Shown here: one piece after another, positions 255-13,271 of the stretch
Numbering within the stretch: the stretch's first letter is position 1
Layout of the letters: each line of letters opens with the position of its first letter
Virus record (IMG/VR): IMGVR_UViG_3300032241_000243
Span: 1-52,958 of that record
DNA length: 52,958 bases
Direction: 5' to 3' (one strand)
Source: a virus
Lineage: Duplodnaviria > Caudoviricetes
Position numbers and translations under genes: made by a program
The notes under the pieces: generated by a model
What the model saw: the letters and a program-made list of their open reading frames with translations, nothing else
Told to the model about the DNA's origin: nothing
Database searches by the model: none

Positions 255-2273
255 TTACTGATTATCTTTGATTAGTTTTACTTCACATGCGTCTGTGGTG
301 CAGTAACTTTCACCAATAGCATCAGCAGCCATGCCTGCATACACGCCCGCAAGATCAATAGGAAACAACTTCATTGTTCCTTCATCTTCGTATTGCTGTT
401 CTGTAATTTGTGTGTACGGCATCTGTGGGTAGACATCACTCATCATAGGCAAGAATGAAACAGTCTTTAGTTGTCCATCGTACATGTGAAGTGCAGTACC
501 GATTGCAGATGCTTCTGTCTCTGGGTCAAACGACACAGTGACAGACACAGAGTTGTCTGACCAGTAGCGTTGAGCAGTAGCAGCAAGAGCCATCTTCTCG
601 TAGATAGAGACATCCTTCTCAGAACGCTTTGCTTCGCTCTTGATTGGGAAGAAGACAACCGATGTACCCTTTGGATCCTCGTTTGCTGGCTCAATGCGGT
701 AGTTAGCCATCTGGAACAGAGTAAGCATTGGGTCGTTGTTACGGAAGCGGATAGCACGATTGAAGTACTTGCCACCTACAGTCCAGTGAACTCCTGGAGA
801 CTCACCAGCAAGGATAGAGACTGTTCCAGAAGGCTTAATGGTTGTGGTCTTAATAGACTCACGGATACCAAGCCACTCTGAGTAGGTCTTATCGTAGCCT
901 TGGATAACTTTGTAACCTTCATCCATCCAGTTACGAAGAACTGGAAGACCACGATTATCTGCAAAGTTTGCAACACCAGAGATAGATGTACCAATACGGC
1001 GGTTACGCTGCATGATGGCGTTTGTCTCTTCCCAGTGGGTAGGGATAAGAGTTACAGTCTTGGCATATAGGTAAGCGAACTTAAGAGTGCGCTTGAAATC
1101 TTCTAGGTCTGTATGGCGGTTGAGGTAAGTCTCTACCAAAGTACAGCACTCAAATGACTCAAGAGACTGCTCAGCGCAAGGGTTGTATCCAGCAATACGC
1201 CAGTCCTTGTTGTTCTCTGGGTCTGCTAGTCGTCCATACTTACGACTTACATCCATCCAGATAACTCCAGGCTCACCGTTTCTGGAGATACCCTCAATAA
1301 TGGGCGATAAATCTTGACCAACAGAAACTTCAACCGAGTTGTTACTCATCCAGCCGTAGGCGGCACGCTCTGGATAAAGGTTGTAGTTCTTAAGGTTGAG
1401 GAACTTCTCATCGTCAATGCGTCCCATCAACAACTCTGCTGAACGGCGAACGTTTCCAGAAACGACACAAACACCAATGCGGTTACCGATGTCAGCGATG
1501 TCAGTGCGAGTAAGTAACTCACCTGCACGTCCATCAAACATCCTTACTAGTTCTTGGTGGAACTCGATAAGTGAGTCGGGACCAGCAGCAGTGCCTCCGA
1601 AGGTCTTGATCGGTTCCCCTGCTGGACGGATTTGGCTGTAGTCAAAGACAGGGCGCTTCTGATCTGGCTTAAGGTAGGAATTGATGAGGGCTGCCGATGA
1701 CTCGACCCAACCTTCACGGGTATCTGGGATGACATAATCTTGTTCTCCTTGTGGTGCGTAGATGGTGAAGTCTTTATCTGCACCCTTATCATCAAATCCA
1801 ACTCCCACACCTAGCATGGATGCTTCCATGAGGAAGGCAAATGGTTTTGCTGGATCTGTTTTGGTCATAGACCCAGTGGAGACAAAGGCACAGTTCTGCA
1901 ACGCTGCAGAGTTACGTTGTTCATTAACAATCTTGGTACCCATGACCCATAAACCACGTCCTGGTGGTGTCCACTTCAACTCAAAGAGACGGTCAAAGGC
2001 TTCCTTGGCTGAGGCTGCTGCCTTGGCGTCTGACCATGGTAGGCGGTTCAACTTTGCGTGATCTTTTTGGAGCGAGTACATGCCGTTGATCACACGCTCG
2101 CATACGTCTACCCAAGTTTCCTTCGTACCATCTTCCTTCAGACGTGAATAGGTACGTAAAAAGGTAATCTCTCCAACCGAGTTTCCCGCAGCATCGCGGT
2201 AGCCAAAGGGCGGCTTCTTGGCGCGATACGGAGCAACAAACTCACTGGCTAACTGGAAAGAAAACATTGACAT
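255..2273 (-). CDS. nrdJ: Class II (adenosylcobalamin-dependent) ribonucleotide reductase, monomeric RTPR-like
   Basis: TFLRTYSR, WTPPGRGLW, LQNCAF, GNVRRSAE, NPCAEQ finger loop, TTIKPSGTVS, C-terminal CTTDAC redox pair. Confidence 0.95.
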   Translation of the reverse strand: MSMFSFQLASEFVAPYRAKKPPFGYRDAAGNSVGEITFLRTYSRLKEDGTKETWVDVCERVINGMYSLQKDHAKLNRLPWSDAKAAASAKEAFDRLFELKWTPPGRGLWVMGTKIVNEQRNSAALQNCAFVSTGSMTKTDPAKPFAFLMEASMLGVGVGFDDKGADKDFTIYAPQGEQDYVIPDTREGWVESSAALINSYLKPDQKRPVFDYSQIRPAGEPIKTFGGTAAGPDSLIEFHQELVRMFDGRAGELLTRTDIADIGNRIGVCVVSGNVRRSAELLMGRIDDEKFLNLKNYNLYPERAAYGWMSNNSVEVSVGQDLSPIIEGISRNGEPGVIWMDVSRKYGRLADPENNKDWRIAGYNPCAEQSLESFECCTLVETYLNRHTDLEDFKRTLKFAYLYAKTVTLIPTHWEETNAIMQRNRRIGTSISGVANFADNRGLPVLRNWMDEGYKVIQGYDKTYSEWLGIRESIKTTTIKPSGTVSILAGESPGVHWTVGGKYFNRAIRFRNNDPMLTLFQMANYRIEPANEDPKGTSVVFFPIKSEAKRSEKDVSIYEKMALAATAQRYWSDNSVSVTVSFDPETEASAIGTALHMYDGQLKTVSFLPMMSDVYPQMPYTQITEQQYEDEGTMKLFPIDLAGVYAGMAADAIGESYCTTDACEVKLIKDNQ

Positions 2274-2419
2274 GTTGGTACCCTATTTCTCTAATTGTGT
2301 AAATACCCCTACATGGGGAGTCCCCTATTGTGCTGCGGATTAACCTAGTGCATAGGTGGTAATAAGCAAAATCGTAAAATACCTACAGTGTTGCTAAACG
2401 CCAAAACTTGCTACCACCA

Positions 2420-2440
2420 TGGTTCATGTGCTATGAACCA
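2420..2440. terminator. Perfect 8-bp hairpin just downstream of the NTase/HAD/TGT-like operon
   Basis: TGGTTCAT-GTGCT-ATGAACCA, 16 nt past the stop at 2457; no clear U-tract, so terminator role is uncertain. Confidence 0.35.
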
Positions 2441-3113
2441 CTGTTATCAGATACAACTATTCTTCGATAGAAGACTGAATGATCTTAGTAACTTGGTCTT
2501 CCTTCAGTGGTTGCGGTAGGTCTTTGAGTGCCTGAGCACGGTCTCCAAAGATAGCAGACAGAACCCCACTTGAAGACTGACGGCTTGCGGTGATCTGAAT
2601 AAACTCTTTATTGGACTCCATGTCATTGACATTAGCCACCAACTTCATGAGTCGATCTACTTCTTGGCTAAGGTTAGGGTCTGCATAGCCACCGTTCATT
2701 TCTTCTGCAAAACGCATAAAAGCCACTCTTTGACCCTGCATTTCAATCATTGCAGTCAATAACGCCTTAAGTTGATCCTTGGTCTTTACCTCTACAGGAA
2801 GGTTAAAACTACACATGGTATCGGGCTTAAAGGCTGGGCAGTTCGCTGCTACGAAGCAGGTATTGCACTGGCGCAGTGAAGAACTTTGGTTCTGGATTAC
2901 TGGTACATCCTTCAAAACGTCTTTGCCATCGTCGTCAGTTTCAACGATCGTCTTCATCTTGTAACCAAAGACAGGTAGGTTTTGGATCTCAGAAGGGTCT
3001 CTTGGAACTACTTTTGTAGCCTCGTTTTTCCGCATAGGAGCGTCACTATTATCAGAAGCGCTGAGATCTAATCCCATTAAACCCGACATGAACTGATCGC
3101 TGTTATCAGATAC
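2439..3113. repeat. Three copies of C(A/G)CT(G/A)TTATCAGA(TAC) at 2439-2454, 3044-3056 and 3098-3113
   Basis: 14-bp exact match CTGTTATCAGATAC at 2441-2454 and 3100-3113; a third copy with one mismatch at 3044-3056. Confidence 0.7.
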
Positions 3114-3959
3114 TTCAGACTTTTTACCGCCCTCAATAATGTGAAGATCGGGAGTTTTCTTATCCATGGATGACTCCAATTGCTTGTAAGACCAAACTGC
3201 AACTTTGGTCGCTTCGAGGGTACTATCTGTAATGAACTCTGAATAGTCTAGTCCAGCCTGCTCCACAATACGCTTGTAACGTGGTCTGGCTTGATCCTTC
3301 ATCTTCTTCGGATAACGGACGATCTTACTGCCATCCCATACGATTGTCTCGCCACGTCGCATAGGTGACAGCCATGACAATGTGCTTGCTGTATCAAATG
3401 GTATCTGCCTCAGATTGTCAGGCTTGGCACATCCAAGGGCATGGAACGAGGTGCCGTACTGCCTCTCATACAGCCTTGTAAAACTTGCTAGGTTGGTTAC
3501 AGACTCGATCTCAGCGTTAGGGATAACGACATTGTCGTACTTCAATGCCATGGCTTTGAGGGCTGGCAGTCCGTAGGACTCATGCCAGATCACATGCAAC
3601 TTAGGGTCATTTTCAAAGAATGAACGCTGTGTCTCAATCCACTCTTGACCTAGAACTTGGGAATCAAACTCTTGAAATCCTGCTGCCCTGTCTGCGTTAT
3701 TGACTAGGAACTCTTGGTACTCTGCTGCGTACTCCAACAGTTCTGCCTTAGACAACCCAGCCTTGTCTGCTTGGGATGCACCCGACTCTATGTACACTGT
3801 AGTTTCTGGAAGGAAATGCTCAGATATTAGCCAAGTCTTGTGTTTTGGTAATCCGCGCTTTTTTAATCCCCAGAAGTTAAGTCCCATGTACTGGACGTTC
3901 TGACCCTCTAACAGTGTGCGGTTTGAGCCAACCTCTACCCCTGAAAAGATAATCTTAAT
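2457..3959 (-). CDS. Degenerate TGT/DpdA-like TIM-barrel protein fused to a C-terminal Cys-cluster/helical domain; probable ATT start at 3959 (first ATG is at 3887)
   Basis: VYIESGA resembles DSG; FHALG...LRQIPFDTASTLSW resembles HxLG...SxDSxxW; C-terminal CNTC-x5-C-x8-C; frame open to 3959 behind a GGAG. Confidence 0.5.
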   Translation of the reverse strand: MKIIFSGVEVGSNRTLLEGQNVQYMGLNFWGLKKRGLPKHKTWLISEHFLPETTVYIESGASQADKAGLSKAELLEYAAEYQEFLVNNADRAAGFQEFDSQVLGQEWIETQRSFFENDPKLHVIWHESYGLPALKAMALKYDNVVIPNAEIESVTNLASFTRLYERQYGTSFHALGCAKPDNLRQIPFDTASTLSWLSPMRRGETIVWDGSKIVRYPKKMKDQARPRYKRIVEQAGLDYSEFITDSTLEATKVAVWSYKQLESSMDKKTPDLHIIEGGKKSEVSDNSDQFMSGLMGLDLSASDNSDAPMRKNEATKVVPRDPSEIQNLPVFGYKMKTIVETDDDGKDVLKDVPVIQNQSSSLRQCNTCFVAANCPAFKPDTMCSFNLPVEVKTKDQLKALLTAMIEMQGQRVAFMRFAEEMNGGYADPNLSQEVDRLMKLVANVNDMESNKEFIQITASRQSSSGVLSAIFGDRAQALKDLPQPLKEDQVTKIIQSSIEE

Positions 3960-4446
3960 CTGAGTACTCCCCGATGTCGTTTGTTGGGGTCATGCGGTCT
4001 TTAGCACGGGCTACGTTCACTCGGTCTACAGCCTCTACGATTTGATCCCATGTACGGAACTTCTTAGGGGCGTTAGGGCGGTGCTCTACTTTCGCGTAAG
4101 ACGGATGATTTACTAGGACACTAGTTACGCGCTGCTCCTCGAATACCCACGCACACATGGCAGGATCAGAGTCAATGTACATCTCTACAGGGGCATGGCT
4201 ACGAGCGATCTTAAACTGACGTTGCTTTAGATCGTCACCTTCTAACCGAAGGGAGTTGTCAATCAAATCATCATAGTTAATGATTCCATGCGAGTGCAAC
4301 CAGTGAGTTGCATCGTCCTTGTCACGCGCAGTAAGCAGGGTGACTCGATGCCCTGCAGTTAGTGCGTAGTAAAGAGTGATCCCTGCTGGAATCGGTTCTC
4401 CTGTATCCGAACAAATTACTCCGTCTAAATTCACCAATGTATTCAC
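3955..4446 (-). CDS. HAD-superfamily protein, PNKP 3'-phosphatase-like, with the motif I Asp replaced by Asn
   Basis: LVNLDGVI (normally DxDG), LLTAR (motif II), WL..HGI..D.LI, K, MYIDSD (motif IV). Confidence 0.7.
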   Translation of the reverse strand: MNTLVNLDGVICSDTGEPIPAGITLYYALTAGHRVTLLTARDKDDATHWLHSHGIINYDDLIDNSLRLEGDDLKQRQFKIARSHAPVEMYIDSDPAMCAWVFEEQRVTSVLVNHPSYAKVEHRPNAPKKFRTWDQIVEAVDRVNVARAKDRMTPTNDIGEYSD

Positions 4447-4449
4447 GTT

Positions 4450-5388
4450 TTATCCTTTGTTTCTGTATGTCGCCGCTCTACGAATAAGTGTTGATGTATC
4501 TGGTAGTTCTACGCCATAGTTCTTTTCTGCAGTACCTTCGTTGTATGCTTTGAGGTAGTCATGAAGGCTGCGTAGTGCAGGTACCGTTCCGTACTTTTTA
4601 CCAGCCTGCCAACGATAGTTGTAGAAGTCTGCATAACCCATACCGCTTTTACTGAATGCATACTTGCGACCAGTATGGATACTGTCGTACAGTGCAGAGG
4701 CTTGTTCTAGTGCTAACTGCAAACGGCTCTCTGCGTTACGACGTGAGGCATCATTCTGAGCACCTTGAAAGTCTGCTAGTGCCTTTGAGTAGCGAGAAAC
4801 AATGTCTTGAGCAACCTTTGCATCACGCTCTGCGTTGGTGTCCCACACTTTATTTTGAGGTGCACCCTCATGCGAAGGAACCACTGTCCACTCATTATGA
4901 GTAAGATCGTAAGCAGCGTAAGGGTTGATACTACGAATGTCTGTAGCCCCTGGGTTTACATAGAATGTAACTTCGTACCCATTCCAGTCTGCAGTCTCTG
5001 GGTAAAGATGTTCGCGAAACTCTTCGTTCAACATCTGGCTGATTTCAGCATCACCAAGACCTGAGTATTCTGGGTTAGATCTACGAAACTTTATGTAGTC
5101 AATACCGATCAAAACATCTAGATCTCCAGGCTGACGTGCTGCAGACCACTGGTAAGAAACTCCAGAACCTGCAATCCACACATGTGTCCAAGTATCTGCG
5201 TGTCGGTAGACCTCATGTAAGAAGTCAAACAATAACTGCAAAAGACCATTACGTACCCATCCCTTGAGTTGGGTACCAGAAAATAACTTAGGGTCAAGAT
5301 CCGCTTCAGGCGCAGAAAAGTACGAGGTAGCACCTTGCTCCAGATTGACTGGCTGAAGGTACTTGTCTAGACCATCTGGGCGATTCAT
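4450..5388 (-). CDS. Pol-beta superfamily nucleotidyltransferase
   Basis: WIAGSGVSYQW...GDLDVLI (GS + DxD), YEVTFYV (third carboxylate), AAYDL..NEW. Confidence 0.8.
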   Translation of the reverse strand: MNRPDGLDKYLQPVNLEQGATSYFSAPEADLDPKLFSGTQLKGWVRNGLLQLLFDFLHEVYRHADTWTHVWIAGSGVSYQWSAARQPGDLDVLIGIDYIKFRRSNPEYSGLGDAEISQMLNEEFREHLYPETADWNGYEVTFYVNPGATDIRSINPYAAYDLTHNEWTVVPSHEGAPQNKVWDTNAERDAKVAQDIVSRYSKALADFQGAQNDASRRNAESRLQLALEQASALYDSIHTGRKYAFSKSGMGYADFYNYRWQAGKKYGTVPALRSLHDYLKAYNEGTAEKNYGVELPDTSTLIRRAATYRNKG

Positions 5389-5394
5389 ACCCTA

Positions 5395-5400
5395 AGTCTA
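5395..5400 (-). promoter_or_regulatory. Putative -10 (TAGACT) of a leaderless transcript
   Basis: TANNNT 6 nt before the ATG at 5388. Confidence 0.55.
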
Positions 5401-5679
5401 TTAGTTTTTGTCGGGTTCTATGCCTCTATCGCGTAACGCATCAGCAAGTTTTGCCTTAATTTCAGCATTAGGATCTGCAGGAGTAAGGCGCTCTACAACC
5501 ATCTGAGCGACCATATCAGCCATCATTTTGTGATCAATGTTAGAGAACAACTCTTTGCTGGTTGTGTAGATGTCGTATGCAGTAGGTTTACGAGAAATAA
5601 CGCCCTCTTGGGCTTCCATACCTTGGGTGTTGATGGTTCCATCGTCATTGACAGTTACAACATACTGAAATGTAATCAT
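5401..5679 (-). CDS. Hypothetical protein
   Basis: 92-aa ORF; GGAGG RBS; ATGA overlap with the upstream gene. Confidence 0.7.
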   Translation of the reverse strand: MITFQYVVTVNDDGTINTQGMEAQEGVISRKPTAYDIYTTSKELFSNIDHKMMADMVAQMVVERLTPADPNAEIKAKLADALRDRGIEPDKN

Positions 5680-6230
5680 GCTAGGCCTCCTAGTAGTTTT
5701 TGCTTACGGGTGTTTACTGCAACTGCCACTGGGCAGAAATCGCATAGGTAGGTCTTTGGACCCGCTTCGTCTTGATAACGAGCCATGCCTTCTGCTTTGC
5801 GTTCTTTTGCGGTTTTAGGTACGAGCATCTTGTGCTTTGAGTGCCAGTCATCGCAGCCTTCTTTTGGCTTATTGTGCTGGCGATAGCATGCCATAGCGTC
5901 GTCCATAAATGTTGAACGTGAGTCATAGTAGGTCTCATCAAGTTCTGCAAGACCCTTAGAACCACCGCCTTTAATCTGGCGAATGATCTCTCTTTTAGAC
6001 TCTGTCTTTGCCCAATACTTTAATGGCAGTACATACAACTTGCCTTTGTGTGGCTCACCAGATGGGAAGATGTGAACTTCACAAGCAATTTCAAGTAGAG
6101 TGTCTTGATCAGACGGCCCCTCGTAAGGAGGCAACTCTTCGAGAGTATCGCAAACCAAGCAGTGAAGTAAACGAAAGACTGGGTCAGTAGGTTGCTGTTG
6201 ACGCTGACCCAAAATAGGCACGTTTGCCAT
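5676..6230 (-). CDS. Hypothetical Cys/His-rich (probable Zn-binding) protein
   Basis: HCLVCD...H...H and CYRQH...C...CDFC; AAGGAG RBS. Confidence 0.7.
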   Translation of the reverse strand: MANVPILGQRQQQPTDPVFRLLHCLVCDTLEELPPYEGPSDQDTLLEIACEVHIFPSGEPHKGKLYVLPLKYWAKTESKREIIRQIKGGGSKGLAELDETYYDSRSTFMDDAMACYRQHNKPKEGCDDWHSKHKMLVPKTAKERKAEGMARYQDEAGPKTYLCDFCPVAVAVNTRKQKLLGGLA

Positions 6231-7859: not shown

Positions 7860-8221
7860 TAGTTATTTCCTAAGTCGTTACGGCTGCTGCCACTATAACC
7901 AGCAGGGGATCCTGAATACCAAGAAATGCGAGGCTCTTGGTAGTTTCTGTCAATACTGACAATGTCTTCAATTCCAGGTTGAACGCGAGGGCCATAACCA
8001 TAACGATCTGGAAACAAACGGATCTGTGGAAGAGGTGGTCGAACCATTGCCTGAATATCTGCTGCAGGGATAGTTGCTACCATCAATGCTTGAGAAGTTA
8101 GGCGCTCCATGTTGCTCGACCAAGGACCGTTGTAAGACCACTTCTTTGCTACTTGATCAGGCTGTACAGGTGCACGCCATGGCTTGGTGTAATCGTAATT
8201 GCCATCAAATGTCTGTGTCAC
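7859..8221 (-). CDS. Hypothetical protein, Pro/Tyr-rich, possibly virion-associated
   Basis: 120-aa ORF overlapping its neighbours' stop and start codons. Confidence 0.65.
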   Translation of the reverse strand: MTQTFDGNYDYTKPWRAPVQPDQVAKKWSYNGPWSSNMERLTSQALMVATIPAADIQAMVRPPLPQIRLFPDRYGYGPRVQPGIEDIVSIDRNYQEPRISWYSGSPAGYSGSSRNDLGNN

Positions 8222-8871
8222 TATCGGCCCTCTCTATGCGCTACCCATGTCATGGCCTGTAGTTGATTAGGGATCTTTATTCCACTTTGTTCAGAGGCTG
8301 TTAAATAAGCATTTTTAAAGTGTTCGTATCTTCCCTGTGCACTAAGACCCAAATTTGGTTTTGTATCGAATTTTTGACCAAAAGGTTTTGCAATCGCAAT
8401 ATCATGAGCATGACGATCAATTGTTACTTCATGTGGTGCATCTGGGTTTAAAATATTATGGTAAAAACTTGTAACCTTATGACCACCAAGAACGTCTAAT
8501 GGGTGTTCTCCACTTAAAATTCGTAAGGCTTTTGTGTTGTTATCTGCGGTTTGCAAATGAAATGGACTACCAGTTTTTGCAATGTGATAACCACCTTGAA
8601 CGTTTGAATCCCAATCCATTGCAGGAGATAATGCAGCAAGTATTCCTGCACCCTTTTCTACATTACCGCTACCAATTCTTACTGCATGATCATGAGCCTT
8701 TGGGTACCAGTTTCTACCTGCGACAATGTCTTCTTTAGACGCATTTGCTAATTTTGCACGAATGTTCATCACGTGAGTAGGTAATACTTTTGCTGCTCTT
8801 TCAGGATCCCAATTACCTGTTAAAGGATCGGTACCAAGAGCATCAAAATTTGGGTATTCAGATTTAGCCAT
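8221..8871 (-). CDS. DUF7178-like protein with a putative HhH DNA-glycosylase-like fold
   Basis: G..WY..AH, AALSP...W..N, KV.SFY.NI, VTIDRHA, QLQAMTWV; visibly AT-richer than its flanks. Confidence 0.6.
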   Translation of the reverse strand: MAKSEYPNFDALGTDPLTGNWDPERAAKVLPTHVMNIRAKLANASKEDIVAGRNWYPKAHDHAVRIGSGNVEKGAGILAALSPAMDWDSNVQGGYHIAKTGSPFHLQTADNNTKALRILSGEHPLDVLGGHKVTSFYHNILNPDAPHEVTIDRHAHDIAIAKPFGQKFDTKPNLGLSAQGRYEHFKNAYLTASEQSGIKIPNQLQAMTWVAHREGR

Positions 8872-10487: not shown

Positions 10488-11075
10488 TTATAGTCTAGGT
10501 TGATCCCTAAACTTAGAATCTTCCATTTGCTTGGCTACTGCCTTCTCGACTTCGTCTTGAGTAGTTTTTGAAACAAGGCGTGCCAAAGCGTAAGAGTCAG
10601 CAGCATTATCGTCCGAGAATTCGATGCCCCAACGCTTGTAGATCTGCATAAGCATCTCTTGCTTCTTGGCGTTACCTTTGCCTGCTGCATACTTTTTAAG
10701 AGTCATTGGTGGGACCTTCAAGGGATATCTACGGGGATCTCCCTCTTCAAAGTGATCGTATATTGCCATGCGAACTACCGCCGACAACTCTCCGAGTACA
10801 AGGGCAGCATGGCTTGCAAGAACAGTTCCTTCTAATCCCAGGTCATCTATGACCCAGTACTTTTCGCAGTAGTTCAACGTGTCCGTTAGCCATTGACGGA
10901 TATCAGCGAGTCTCTCGATACCAAAATAAGGAGACTTGTACACCCACGTAATGAACTCTGAAGGGTCGTCTGTTGCTAAAACAGTGAGGGCAAACCCTGT
11001 AAGAGATTGATCAATACCAATAGATACTAGTGAGTCCCCAGGTATTGCCTTACCTTCAATTAACTTTGTTGGCAT
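10488..11075 (-). CDS. ruvC: RuvC-like Holliday junction resolvase
   Basis: IGIDQSLTG, LE, LKKYAAGKGNAKK, DDNAADS. Confidence 0.85.
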   Translation of the reverse strand: MPTKLIEGKAIPGDSLVSIGIDQSLTGFALTVLATDDPSEFITWVYKSPYFGIERLADIRQWLTDTLNYCEKYWVIDDLGLEGTVLASHAALVLGELSAVVRMAIYDHFEEGDPRRYPLKVPPMTLKKYAAGKGNAKKQEMLMQIYKRWGIEFSDDNAADSYALARLVSKTTQDEVEKAVAKQMEDSKFRDQPRL

Positions 11076-11607
11076 CTAACAGGGGTTCCGTTCTTACTTG
11101 GACTAGTAGTTCTAGATCCTTAAGTGTTCCCCCGTTATGCAATACCTTATCCCACTTGTATCCGTCTAGTGCGGTTTCTGAGATATGTCGATTAACAGCC
11201 TCAACTCCTGGGCGCTGAATTCTCCACAACTCTCCACCCAGTTGTTTGATCATCCCTGATTCGTTTTCAAATCGAACGTCTGTAATTACGTAGTTGGTGT
11301 TGATGTCAGACATCTGGTGCATAGCAGCAATCACCCAAACGTCTTCTCCAAGACGCTTACGTGCACCTACTCCAAGTTCTTGAAGTAGACGTCTTACTTC
11401 TGGAAACTGTGTTTTAGCAACATCCCAACCGTAAGCACCAACAATACCTTGCAGTGTGTAGTCTGTTTTTAAAACAGGGTTTAAATCCCATAACAAATTG
11501 CGAATAGGATCAGCAAATGCCACACGTGTAAAGTTGTACTTTTCTACAAGTACTTTTGCAACTTCATCTTTTCCGCTTCTGGCATACCCGCTTAGGCCGA
11601 TGATCAT
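11056..11607 (-). CDS. Deoxynucleoside monophosphate kinase
   Basis: IGLSGYARSGKD P-loop, FADPIR, RRLLQELG, VITDVRFENE, HISE. Confidence 0.9.
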   Translation of the reverse strand: MIIGLSGYARSGKDEVAKVLVEKYNFTRVAFADPIRNLLWDLNPVLKTDYTLQGIVGAYGWDVAKTQFPEVRRLLQELGVGARKRLGEDVWVIAAMHQMSDINTNYVITDVRFENESGMIKQLGGELWRIQRPGVEAVNRHISETALDGYKWDKVLHNGGTLKDLELLVQVRTEPLLDANKVN

Positions 11608-13271
11608 TTATTACGTCCTTTGACTAGTGCGTTTAACTCTGGTAAATAAAGGTAATCAATATCAGACTCACGCAAAGTTTGTAAAGCGTCAGTAAGAGTT
11701 TCAACTATGGCATTTCCTGCCAAATTGAAGGAAGTATTAAAAACAATTGGAACACCAGTTATGTCATCAAAACTTTTTATAAGATCGTAGTAGAACGGGT
11801 TCTGCTCTCTGGATAGGGTCTGTACTCTACAAGTCCCATCAACGTGTGTTATTGCAGGTATTTTGGTTTTCTTTTCCTCAATAACGTCTACAGCGTACAT
11901 CATGTAAGGTGATTCATCCAAAGACAACATGTTAAACCAGTCTTTAGCCTTTTCTTTTAAAACTGTACCAGCAAAGGGTCGGTACCATTCTCTTTTTTTG
12001 ACTGCGTTTACGTGATCTTTTCCATTAGGGTCTCTAGGATCGTACAAGATACTTCGATTACCTAATGCTCTGGGACCTGCTTCTGATCGTCCTTGATATA
12101 AGGCAACAATTTTTTTATCTGCAAGTAATTTAGCAACGTCTTCTGCGGTCACGTTTATTTCATAGTCGGTACCACGTATATCTTCAAGAGTGTAGTTATA
12201 GGTTAATCCATAGTAAATACTATTTTGAGTAACAATGTTTTTACTTTTAGTCTCTAAATAGTAAGCGGTCTTTGCTGATCCAAGAGCATTTCCGTCATCA
12301 GTTGACATTGGTTCTACGTAAATAGACACACCTTTTGGTAACTTTTTTAATAAATGGTAGTTTGAAACACAGTTTAAAAAAAACCCACCAGATAAACAAA
12401 GGTTTTTTTGTCCAGTTTTTTCTAGCATGTTTAGTATGTAGTTGGAAACATGTTCTTGAGTGTCTTGTTGCACTCTGTATGCAAGGTTTGCTCGTGTTTG
12501 AAAATCATCAGGTAGATAACCCTCAAAAATGGGTGACCTGTTGCATATTTTAGTCATCCATAAAGTGTTATTTAGTTCACCGTTAGCGTATAACGAAGGA
12601 AAACGAGTGTCATCTACTCCATAAGAAGACATTCCCATCACTTTTCCCGCACCGTGATGTCCTAGACCATAGTGCAAAGAAAGATCCTCAAAAATAGCGG
12701 CTTCTGAGAATACGTTTGTTGTGTAAACAGTTTCGTTTAAGTTGTAAGAGGTTGTTGGGGAGTGAAAAGCGCCGCCCTCATCAAAGCAACGACTTTGTTG
12801 AATAGTCACAACATTGTGGGGGTAACTCATGTAAAAACTAGTAGTTCTTTCAAAGTGAGTTATCCCGTCTATAATTGTACCTGATCCCTTACCGTCTATA
12901 ACGATACACAGTGCTTCTTTAAATCCAGAGTTATAAAAAGCAGTTGATGCGTGCATTTCATGATGATTTTCGGAAAAGTCATAGGTTTTAAAAGAACTAT
13001 CAAAAAAAGTTAACCCCAATGATCGTACAGCGTCTTGTATCACCATCTCATCCGAATATGTTCGCTCTTTCCATGCACGAGACCTTGCAGAAACAGCCAA
13101 GATGTCAATGTGGTCTACATAGTCTTTTACTTTTTGTAAAGAAGTAAATATTGAAGCATCATGTTTTATGTTGTTTAATCGTTCTTCTTGAACATGAAAA
13201 AGAACTTCAGTATCCCTGAGCAAAGCAACTGAACCATCATGGTTAGATTTATTTACACCCAAGATGATCAT
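11604..13271 (-). CDS. O-carbamoyltransferase (NodU/CmcH/TobZ family)
   Basis: HDGS, HHEMHA..AFY.SGF, IDGKG, GKVMG.SSYG, SGG..LNC, GPRALGNRSIL, KKRE.YRPFA, HVDGTCRVQT, NTSFNLAG. Confidence 0.93.
   Translation of the reverse strand: MIILGVNKSNHDGSVALLRDTEVLFHVQEERLNNIKHDASIFTSLQKVKDYVDHIDILAVSARSRAWKERTYSDEMVIQDAVRSLGLTFFDSSFKTYDFSENHHEMHASTAFYNSGFKEALCIVIDGKGSGTIIDGITHFERTTSFYMSYPHNVVTIQQSRCFDEGGAFHSPTTSYNLNETVYTTNVFSEAAIFEDLSLHYGLGHHGAGKVMGMSSYGVDDTRFPSLYANGELNNTLWMTKICNRSPIFEGYLPDDFQTRANLAYRVQQDTQEHVSNYILNMLEKTGQKNLCLSGGFFLNCVSNYHLLKKLPKGVSIYVEPMSTDDGNALGSAKTAYYLETKSKNIVTQNSIYYGLTYNYTLEDIRGTDYEINVTAEDVAKLLADKKIVALYQGRSEAGPRALGNRSILYDPRDPNGKDHVNAVKKREWYRPFAGTVLKEKAKDWFNMLSLDESPYMMYAVDVIEEKKTKIPAITHVDGTCRVQTLSREQNPFYYDLIKSFDDITGVPIVFNTSFNLAGNAIVETLTDALQTLRESDIDYLYLPELNALVKGRNK

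Follow-up and report, generated by a model that had tools for sequence, protein, structure and literature searches.

In viruses, DpdA has been put forward as the signature protein of DNA that contains 7-deazaguanine (PMC10516641). DpdA and tRNA-guanine transglycosylase (TGT) have three invariant aspartates in common, described in bacterial DpdA as the general acid/base D95, the base-recognition residue D130 and the nucleophile D256, together with an H181-G182 pair and a CXCX2CX22H zinc site (PMC10164549). Both D95A and D256A abolish guanine exchange by the bacterial protein (PMC10164549). Singleton DpdAs might have diverged functionally, as Hutinet et al. proposed (PMC6884629). Here we analyze a DpdA-like gene and the genes around it on the minus strand of a 52,958-nt stretch of phage DNA, record IMGVR_UViG_3300032241_000243 of IMG/VR; this whole stretch is referred to as the window. 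Our analysis indicated that the gene encodes a barrel of the phage DpdA lineage. Throughout its family the aspartate nucleophile is lost, with nearly no exceptions, and the residues that read the base persist.

An original prediction, made from the sequence alone, had placed here a system of three same-strand genes upstream of nrdJ, centred on a nucleotidyltransferase (NTase). The three open reading frames (ORFs) are present, at 4450-5388, 3955-4446 and 2457-3887. The genes of the module, including one outside the range that this prediction covered, are as follows.

5676-6230, minus strand: 184-residue protein rich in Cys and His, beyond the range of the original prediction
4450-5388, minus strand: ORF of a Pol-beta NTase, 312 residues
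3955-4446, minus strand: ORF of a small, tentatively HAD-like protein, 163 residues
2457-3959, minus strand: DpdA-like gene, about 500 residues, with a probable ATT start at 3959-3957; the first ATG is at 3887 (476-residue ORF, 2457-3887)

Profile searches place the DpdA-like protein with phage DpdA. It matches phrog_887, the phage DpdA family of PHROG, at E 4.8e-56 over profile positions 58-492 of 509. The same family is matched by the experimentally studied DpdA of Pseudomonas phage Iggy (E 5e-86) and by gp021 of Bacillus phage BCD7 (E 1.9e-151). Comparison with hhalign gave 97.8% over 211 columns for Iggy DpdA and 99.9% (E 2.8e-33) for the barrel of BCD7 gp021. The comparison of the family profile with a single E. 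coli Tgt sequence was not significant (0.65%); it is the fold and phage DpdA that tie the family to TGT. No Pfam match at E<=1 was found for the DpdA-like protein, PF01702 (TGT) included, and the characterized Iggy DpdA likewise has none. NCBIfam and PADLOC returned nothing for the module proteins. PDB-chain sequence searches with all three proteins and with the profiles A1 and A3 returned nothing meaningful.

An AlphaFold2 (AF2) model of the DpdA-like protein was built from a 67-sequence alignment. Its mean predicted local distance difference test (pLDDT) score is 82, and it divides the protein into the following regions.

3156-3956, minus strand: (beta/alpha)8 barrel of TGT/DpdA fold, residues 1-267, pLDDT >90
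3024-3155, minus strand: disordered linker, residues 268-311, with two SDNS[D] peptide repeats, pLDDT <50
2460-3023, minus strand: C-terminal domain, residues 312-499, with a four-Cys motif and long helices, pLDDT about 80-90

A VIA fold search with this model found ArcTGT (Z 17.5), DpdA (7ui4, Z 16.9), Cap10 (Z 16.1), bTGT (Z 16.1) and QTRT2 (Z 15.3). These five top matches all belong to the TGT superfamily, and generic TIM barrels begin at Z 13.3. Foldseek concurs on the fold (E 6e-6). The TGT-like TIM barrel that had been predicted for the 2457 ORF is thus borne out, and its product is a TGT/DpdA-superfamily barrel of the phage DpdA lineage.

The C-terminal domain carries the motif C364-x2-C367-x5-C373-x8-C382 (codons 2867-2811), which is invariant in 67/67 aligned sequences. 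It is found in 200-201 of 205 family members, the set to which residue counts refer below unless another number is given. In tblastn searches the domain matches the C-termini of BCD7 gp021 and of one Bacteroides phage protein. We take the C-x2-C-x5-C spacing to resemble the iron-sulfur loop of some DNA repair enzymes. A search of the ESM Atlas with this domain gave chance-level scores of 0.78-0.79, including a 'T5 terminase small subunit' cluster, and was not used. Four long family representatives (814-865 residues) contain intein-like insertions, recognized by eye in the alignment. They lie inside the G-D|T motif (P0205), inside the C-x2-C motif (P0226 and P0228) and after the fourth Cys (P0151). 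Inteins in the most conserved motifs are typical of enzyme active sites. N-terminal HNH-type extensions, also recognized by eye, are present in P0126 and P0130, members of 583-622 residues.

The residues of the barrel pocket were compared with their equivalents in DpdA. The Asp of the D-S-x-x-W motif in both Iggy DpdA and BCD7 gp021 aligns to S191 of the window protein (hhalign). Among the family members this position is S in 84, A in 47, T in 21, G in 18, I in 9, M in 6, V in 6 and Y in 4, which together make 195 of 205; Asp occurs in one listed pattern. The alignments show that the nucleophile (D256 of DpdA, D280 of TGT) has been lost family-wide, with nearly no exceptions. The original prediction had called the barrel degenerate because of its altered motifs, and that description holds. 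I-E-S-G-A and F-D-T-A-S-T are indeed present, but the nucleophile position is S191 and not D188, the Asp of the DTAST segment. D188 was rejected as a candidate nucleophile: it precedes the strand 189-192, is acidic in 82/205 members and is misaligned with the DpdA Asp. Its presence is weakly associated with that of the NTase (27/7 versus 24/22).

Other pocket residues are kept to a large degree. The general-acid site, D95/D102 in the DSG motif, corresponds to position 57, which is Asp in 142, Tyr in 22, Glu in 21, His in 7 and Asn in 4 members; the window protein has Glu57, within E57-S58-G59. S58 is found in 148 members, and the base-recognition equivalents D98 and H172 in 175 and 157, respectively. 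The residues that read the guanine or 7-deazaguanine base in DpdA and TGT (Asp/Glu57-Ser58, Asp98 and His172) thus persist. The family also has conserved carboxylates of its own: E8 in 178 of 191 non-gap sequences, D/E203 in 192 members, and E96, which is strongly conserved as well. W195 and the four Cys are essentially invariant. The CXCX2CX22H zinc motif, which pins insertion 8 in bacterial DpdA and TGT, was not found in the window barrel; a Cys motif is present instead in the separate domain past the disordered linker. The 312-residue Iggy DpdA likewise has no CXCX2C motif.

We looked for a source of 7-deazaguanine in the phages and in their hosts. QueC, FolE, QueD and radical-SAM genes were not found in the window, in agreement with the original statement on queC/D/E and folE. 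The window is estimated to hold 54% of the genome, and therefore the absence of a gene from it alone proved nothing. QueC was absent from 9/9 complete relatives (four close ones with direct terminal repeats, BRock, GiJojo and three more), and FolE, QueD (PTPS) and radical SAM from 4/4 complete close relatives; the positive controls worked in both searches. The complete relatives thus encode none of the 7-deazaguanine synthesis genes searched for. In five actinobacterial genomes carrying the family, PF01702 TGT was found in 0/5 and full-length QueC in 2/5. Because the Asp nucleophile is lost and deazaguanine synthesis genes are absent, the job of the protein is probably different from the swap of guanine for 7-deazaguanine.

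The DpdA of phage Iggy is of the DpdA1 type and has the D/E-S-G, L/F-D and H-G pocket motifs in common with the window protein. It differs in its length of 312 residues, in having no C-terminal four-Cys domain and in having Asp where the window has Ser191. Its gene sits in a FolE-QueD-QueC-QueE cluster, and none of these genes is found in the relatives of the window that were searched. BCD7 gp021 (757 residues, annotated as queuine tRNA-ribosyltransferase) is similar in both the barrel and the C-terminal Cys domain (tblastn E 2e-8), and also shares a G-x-E motif in strand 1 and a G-E motif after strand 8. Unlike the window protein, it retains Asp as the nucleophile, its two domains are separated by a long insert, and it is encoded directly beside FolE (GTP cyclohydrolase), QueC, QueE and QueD. 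A relative with the same two domains is therefore encoded within a typical deazaguanine cluster.

Bacterial DpdA from S. Montevideo (7UI4) superimposes with a root-mean-square deviation of 3.5 over 256 residues. Equivalents of D130 and H181 are present in the window protein, whereas D95 is replaced by Glu and D256 by Ser, and the barrel zinc site and a DpdB partner are absent. Cap10 of type IV CBASS (9NTN) resembles the locus in a further respect, as its TGT-fold gene lies beside one for a Pol-beta-fold nucleotidyltransferase. However, Cap10 keeps the nucleophile D248, needs the QueC-like Cap9 and has a CD-NTase partner with a glycine-rich N-terminus, none of which was seen here. QTRT2 is a member of the TGT family without transglycosylase catalysis. 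This eukaryotic TGT subunit forms a heterodimer with the catalytic QTRT1, whereas no catalytic TGT was found in the phage or in the five hosts tested.

The DpdA-like protein is accompanied by a set of partners that was defined in 80 close and 80 distant loci, the latter scored with profile hidden Markov models. All close loci with enough flanking sequence keep the order NTase, HAD-like, DpdA-like, nrdJ. Contig ends account for every close locus without the NTase (10), the HAD-like gene (5) or nrdJ (3). NTase, HAD-like and DpdA-like genes also occur together in five cultured BRock-like Streptomyces phages. Among the distant loci, 50/80 have the 184-residue, NTase, HAD-like and DpdA-like genes, and 27/80 lack the NTase alone. 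The remainder comprises one locus without the 184-residue gene, at a contig end, and two with the DpdA-like gene alone, of which L122 is truncated and L141 has full flanks. Gene by gene, the HAD-like protein is present in 78/80, the 184-residue protein in 77/80 and the NTase in 51/80 distant loci. By tblastn the 184-residue gene is found in 80/82 loci; of the genes upstream, it accompanies the DpdA-like gene most consistently. In the most distant clade (L157 and L159) the 184-residue, HAD-like and DpdA-like genes are contiguous, with overlapping stop and start codons. Five complete genomes have no NTase but retain the rest of the module, and a repeat search found the NTase in the positive controls. 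From these counts and from the contiguity in L157 and L159, the constant set consists of the 184-residue, HAD-like and DpdA-like genes, and the NTase is an optional member. The co-occurrence expected by the original prediction is therefore observed in all informative close loci, in the BRock-like phages and in the 50 distant loci, but its three-gene system centred on the NTase does not hold, because the NTase goes missing while the HAD-like and 184-residue proteins stay. BRock-like phages have an extra gene of 276-388 residues between the HAD-like and DpdA-like genes (4715-5881 in L002, BRock gp37; 4936-5766 in L001). It was found by tblastn in 15/82 loci and has no PHROG or Pfam match.

The constant partners are small. 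The 163-residue protein has N6-L-D8-G9 where HAD enzymes have DxDG, and in an alignment of 32 sequences the nucleophile position is never Asp. It matches phrog_415 and phrog_1238 at E about 1e-4, and this applies to the window's own copy alone (1/32). Pfam matches were found for 0/32 members, and hhalign with E. coli GmhB gave 0.15%. The NLDG that had been read as the degenerate motif of a PNKP-type HAD is present, but the HAD label itself is weak and tentative. In the 184-residue protein C24, H53, C115, C126, C163 and C166 are invariant and C27 is near-invariant across 27 aligned sequences; it has no family match in Pfam, PHROG, PADLOC or NCBIfam. A complex prediction for the DpdA-like and HAD-like proteins scored 0.00 against a mark of 0.32; it gives no verdict and was not used.

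The NTase looks catalytically intact. As had been predicted, its motifs G74-S75, D89-L-D91 and E139 are present and conserved: in an alignment of 29 sequences G74, S75, D89 and D91 are invariant, and E139 is kept in at least 90%. By its sequence it fits the Pol-beta superfamily motif of hG[GS], DxD and a third carboxylate. Its AF2 model has a pLDDT of 90. The fold matches are weak, with minimal NTases (MNT) at Z 5.9-6.3 over about 85-100 residues. Foldseek rows are weak as well, naming ANT, CCA-adding and CD-NTase enzymes at E 0.02-0.2 (CdnG, CdnC and CdnE at E 0.04-0.1). PF01909 is found on 12% of the members of a neighboring Atlas cluster, and Pfam gave nothing above threshold for the NTase itself, with a sub-threshold match to DUF6932. 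MNT antitoxins (PF01909, NTP_transf_2) have the same GS, DxD and E triad. The window NTase differs from them in its 130-residue helical C-terminal domain, in a conserved N-terminal S-G-Y-F-S..L-D-P segment and in having no HEPN partner. No glycine-rich start, QueC-like gene or PADLOC match that would mark a type IV CBASS CD-NTase was found. The nucleotidyltransferase gp015 of BCD7, which lies near gp021, is unrelated to it (hhalign 0.4%).

The start of the DpdA-like gene bears on the integrity of the barrel. Homologues of the 2457 ORF have 500-502 residues and start about 25 residues earlier, with M-[KRT]-..-I-F-S-G. In nearly all of the 150 representative matches listed, query residue 1-3 of the 476-residue ORF aligns to residue 25-30 of the match. 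This ORF lacks strand beta-1, in which G6 is invariant and E8 nearly so. At the start position of the relatives the window has ATT (3959-3957), a codon that shares bases with the TAA at the end of the HAD-like gene. The overlap reads ATGA or TAATG in most relatives, and the ATT form is found in two other loci. In the window (3953-3959) the ATGA-type overlap has become ATTAA through a single base change, which removes the canonical start but leaves the upstream stop intact. Since homologues start about 25 residues upstream, with strand beta-1, translation probably begins at the ATT at 3959, or by coupled re-initiation, and not at the ATG at 3887. The NTase and HAD-like genes are separated by 3 nt, as originally reported.

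Our preferred reading, held tentatively and with somewhat less than an even chance of being right, is that the DpdA-derived barrel is still an enzyme acting on a guanine-like DNA base, with altered chemistry and with two constant small partners. The protein would not be a deazaguanine insertase. It would flip a guanine-like base of DNA into its pocket, and the altered chemistry might be hydrolytic excision, or exchange in which a different carboxylate takes part, for example Asp/Glu203 or the near-invariant Glu8. It would act together with the translationally coupled HAD-like protein and the 184-residue Cys/His protein. The NTase, which has its own conserved candidate leaderless promoter element, would be an optional add-on, lost from or never acquired by some lineages. 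Homology and fold, the changed catalytic residues, the missing synthesis pathway and the co-occurrence of the partners were counted in favor of this reading, as was the DNA context, namely the position in the replication arm, the HNH fusions and the inteins in conserved motifs.

Several points weigh against the preferred reading. That DNA is the substrate is something we infer. About 20% of members have no acidic residue at the general-acid position (Y in 22, H in 7, N in 4, and others), which is easier to reconcile with a protein that binds without catalysis than with an enzyme. BCD7 gp021 has both Glu8 and Glu203 although its Asp is intact, and therefore they are not specific compensations for a lost nucleophile. 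A reach of Glu8 or Asp/Glu203 to C1' is hypothetical. L141, with full flanks, has the DpdA-like gene without either constant partner. Finally, the carriers of the module are all related, and common ancestry, instead of a functional link, may account for part of the conserved gene order.

Foremost among the other explanations is that the protein binds without catalysis. Its pocket would hold a free ligand or, in DNA, a base resembling guanine or deazaguanine, and the protein would serve as scaffold, protector or regulator together with a dead HAD-like protein, in the manner of QTRT2. We consider this doubtful, though it is to be taken seriously. The family-wide loss of the nucleophile, the frequent non-acidic residue at the general-acid position, the HAD-like companion that also lacks its would-be nucleophile and the place of QTRT2 among the top fold matches all fit it. 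However, E8, E96, D98 and D/E203 are strongly conserved carboxylates, inteins sit in the most conserved motifs, and neither the phage nor the five hosts tested provide a catalytic TGT as partner.

A more specific form of the preferred enzymatic reading is unlikely as a whole. Here the catalytic carboxylate would have been relocated from strand 8 to Glu8 of strand 1. Guanine, or a modification installed by the host, would then be excised from or exchanged in DNA, aided by the metal-cluster domain and the two small partners. In two thirds of lineages a dedicated NTase would take this chemistry further, for instance through nucleotidylation of the product or of a partner. If true, actinophages would possess a new epigenetic or anti-restriction system, in hosts without the queuosine pathway.

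There is a rather small chance that the protein is a canonical singleton DpdA, which would help phage DNA escape restriction by placing in it preQ0 or another 7-deazaguanine made by the host, the role proposed for dpdA-only phages. Membership in phrog_887 and the conserved base pocket are consistent with such a role, an ArdA-like anti-restriction gene lies near the module in GiJojo, and singleton DpdAs have been described with their function left open (PMC6884629). On the other hand, the Asp nucleophile whose replacement abolishes exchange in bacterial DpdA (D256A, PMC10164549) is absent, and the carrier hosts offer full-length QueC in 2/5 and TGT in 0/5 cases.

The model at the core of the original prediction, in which an active NTase and two pseudoenzyme partners serve in tRNA end repair, interference with nucleotide signals or protein NMPylation, is about as improbable. 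The catalytic residues of the NTase and its leaderless element are conserved, the three genes stand side by side in every informative close relative and in the 50 distant loci, and Cap10-CdnD is a precedent for a TGT-fold protein that binds a nucleotidyltransferase. Against this, the NTase is dispensed with in the 27 distant loci and the five complete genomes, and insertions part it from the HAD-like gene in several close loci. The NTase also lacks the glycine-rich N-terminus that is conjugated in type IV CBASS, and neither a QueC/Cap9-like gene nor a PADLOC match accompanies it. The part concerning tRNA end repair finds no support, given the weak HAD label and the five carrier hosts without tgt.

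Smaller still is the probability that the protein is an anti-defence decoy or sponge, whose nucleophile-less pocket sequesters deazaguanine-bearing immune components (the NDG-CD-NTase of type IV CBASS, Qat or Dpd) or base ligands: deazaguanine-based immunity exists, the fold is close to Cap10 and the pocket is kept with its nucleophile lost, but nothing direct speaks for it, and a syntenic, intein-bearing core gene in a DNA-metabolism arm is unlike typical variable anti-defence genes. A trio resembling base excision repair (glycosylase, 3'-phosphatase and gap-filling NTase) was rejected, as the HAD-like protein has no nucleophile and the NTase no polymerase-like match.

The following candidate element precedes the NTase.

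5389-5400, minus strand: candidate leaderless -10 element TAGACT (5400-5395) followed by 6 nt before the NTase ATG

The leaderless -10 element that had been proposed at 5395-5400 is upheld by comparison. Wherever the NTase start of a close relative could be read, it is preceded by TA(G/A)ACT (40/40); as extracted, 34 of these have the exact N6-ATG spacing. The pattern occurs once in the window. A sigma-70 scan of the window did not call it. The hairpin at 2420-2440, taken before to be the end of the unit, exists, but it folds no better than shuffled sequences (z-score -0.34), was not called in a terminator scan and is not conserved in 13 relatives; the idea of a terminator here was dropped. 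Conserved blocks are present in the spacer between the DpdA-like gene and nrdJ (2274-2456, minus strand). A GTTAACA..GATAGGTT-like block and AGGGGTATTT are conserved in 13 relatives, and the block ATCTGATAA directly after the stop codon is invariant in 13/13. The first two blocks probably form the promoter or regulatory region of nrdJ itself. Rfam gave no match in the window, this spacer included. The motif TCTGATAACAG has three copies in the window, all at the DpdA-like gene (2441-2454, 3046-3056 and 3100-3113, minus strand). Two of them, 57 nt apart, are within the linker-coding region and encode the SDNS peptides, and the third (2441-2454) directly follows the stop codon. The same arrangement is found in loci L007 and L040, and partly in L077.

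The module is located at the far end of a long minus-strand arm of replication, recombination and nucleotide genes, just before nrdJ. The window also encodes contractile tail genes (sheath and baseplate). The neighbouring nrdJ and genes of the arm are listed below.

255-2273, minus strand: nrdJ, the downstream neighbour of the DpdA-like gene
Replication arm, minus strand: initiator, DnaC-like loader, DnaB, primase, endonuclease VII, helicase and DNA polymerase genes
Replication arm, continued, minus strand: RecA, Cas4-like exonuclease, carbamoyltransferase, deoxynucleoside monophosphate (dNMP) kinase and RuvC genes

The carbamoyltransferase gene, of NodU/CmcH type (11604-13271, minus strand), overlaps the start of the dNMP kinase gene (11056-11607), and this pairing hints at a step of nucleotide or DNA hypermodification. 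A DUF7178 protein (8221-8871, minus strand; E 4.5e-44) is encoded amid small genes of unknown function upstream of the module.

The close relatives are uncultured phages whose DpdA-like proteins show 72-79% identity to that of the window; their genomes measure 95-98 kb and have direct terminal repeats. Distant relatives are the cultured Streptomyces phages BRock, GiJojo, LuckySocke, Alone3 and pSt2308 of 112-116 kb, and many IMG/VR contigs of 100-116 kb. The DpdA-like gene is gp36 in BRock and gp181 in GiJojo. A soil branch of the family is found in 19 genome contigs, 18/19 from Actinomycetota, and several of these are of megabase size and hence represent prophages. One close relative of the NTase is labelled as an Actinobacteria metagenome-assembled genome. 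Because of these relatives, the host is most likely an actinobacterium, and the phage probably infects freshwater actinobacteria. The soil-branch loci L168-L186 are on chromosomes or large contigs of Streptomyces, Nonomuraea, Kitasatospora, Saccharothrix, Terracoccus, Herbidospora and Actinomadura, which points to prophages, or to integrated relatives, with a size near 100 kb. One soil-branch contig of 115 kb is binned as Saccharibacteria and is probably a phage. Downstream of the DpdA-like gene in L157 (4469-5758), HD-domain-like and WhiB-like ORFs were recognized by eye, consistent with an actinobacterial host.

The lineage that carries the module is one of actinobacterial phages of roughly 95-115 kb. 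At 50% identity, 816 clusters match the DpdA-like family at E<=1e-3, and the family is frequent in viromes from fresh water and soil and, in prophage form, in Streptomyces and its kin. We found no paper on this subfamily in a literature search that did not cover the supplementary tables of PMC6884629 and PMC10516641, and the main texts of these two papers name neither BRock nor BCD7. Four features appear to be new: the replacement of the nucleophile across the family, the constant partners, the lack of any deazaguanine source and the C-terminal domain shared with BCD7.

Annotators already label genes of the relatives as 'queuine tRNA-ribosyltransferase' or 'dpdA-like'. Since the subfamily lacks both the nucleophile and the pathway, such labels, or that of DpdA, would wrongly predict modified DNA. 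The module is directly testable, as BRock, GiJojo, LuckySocke, Alone3 and pSt2308 are cultured phages. Cap10 recently showed that the TGT fold can be used otherwise, and a module with two constant partners and an optional NTase could be another case. Large, common, without nucleophile or deazaguanine pathway, and found in hosts without tgt, this subfamily challenges the rule that DpdA is a signature of 7-deazaguanine in viral DNA.

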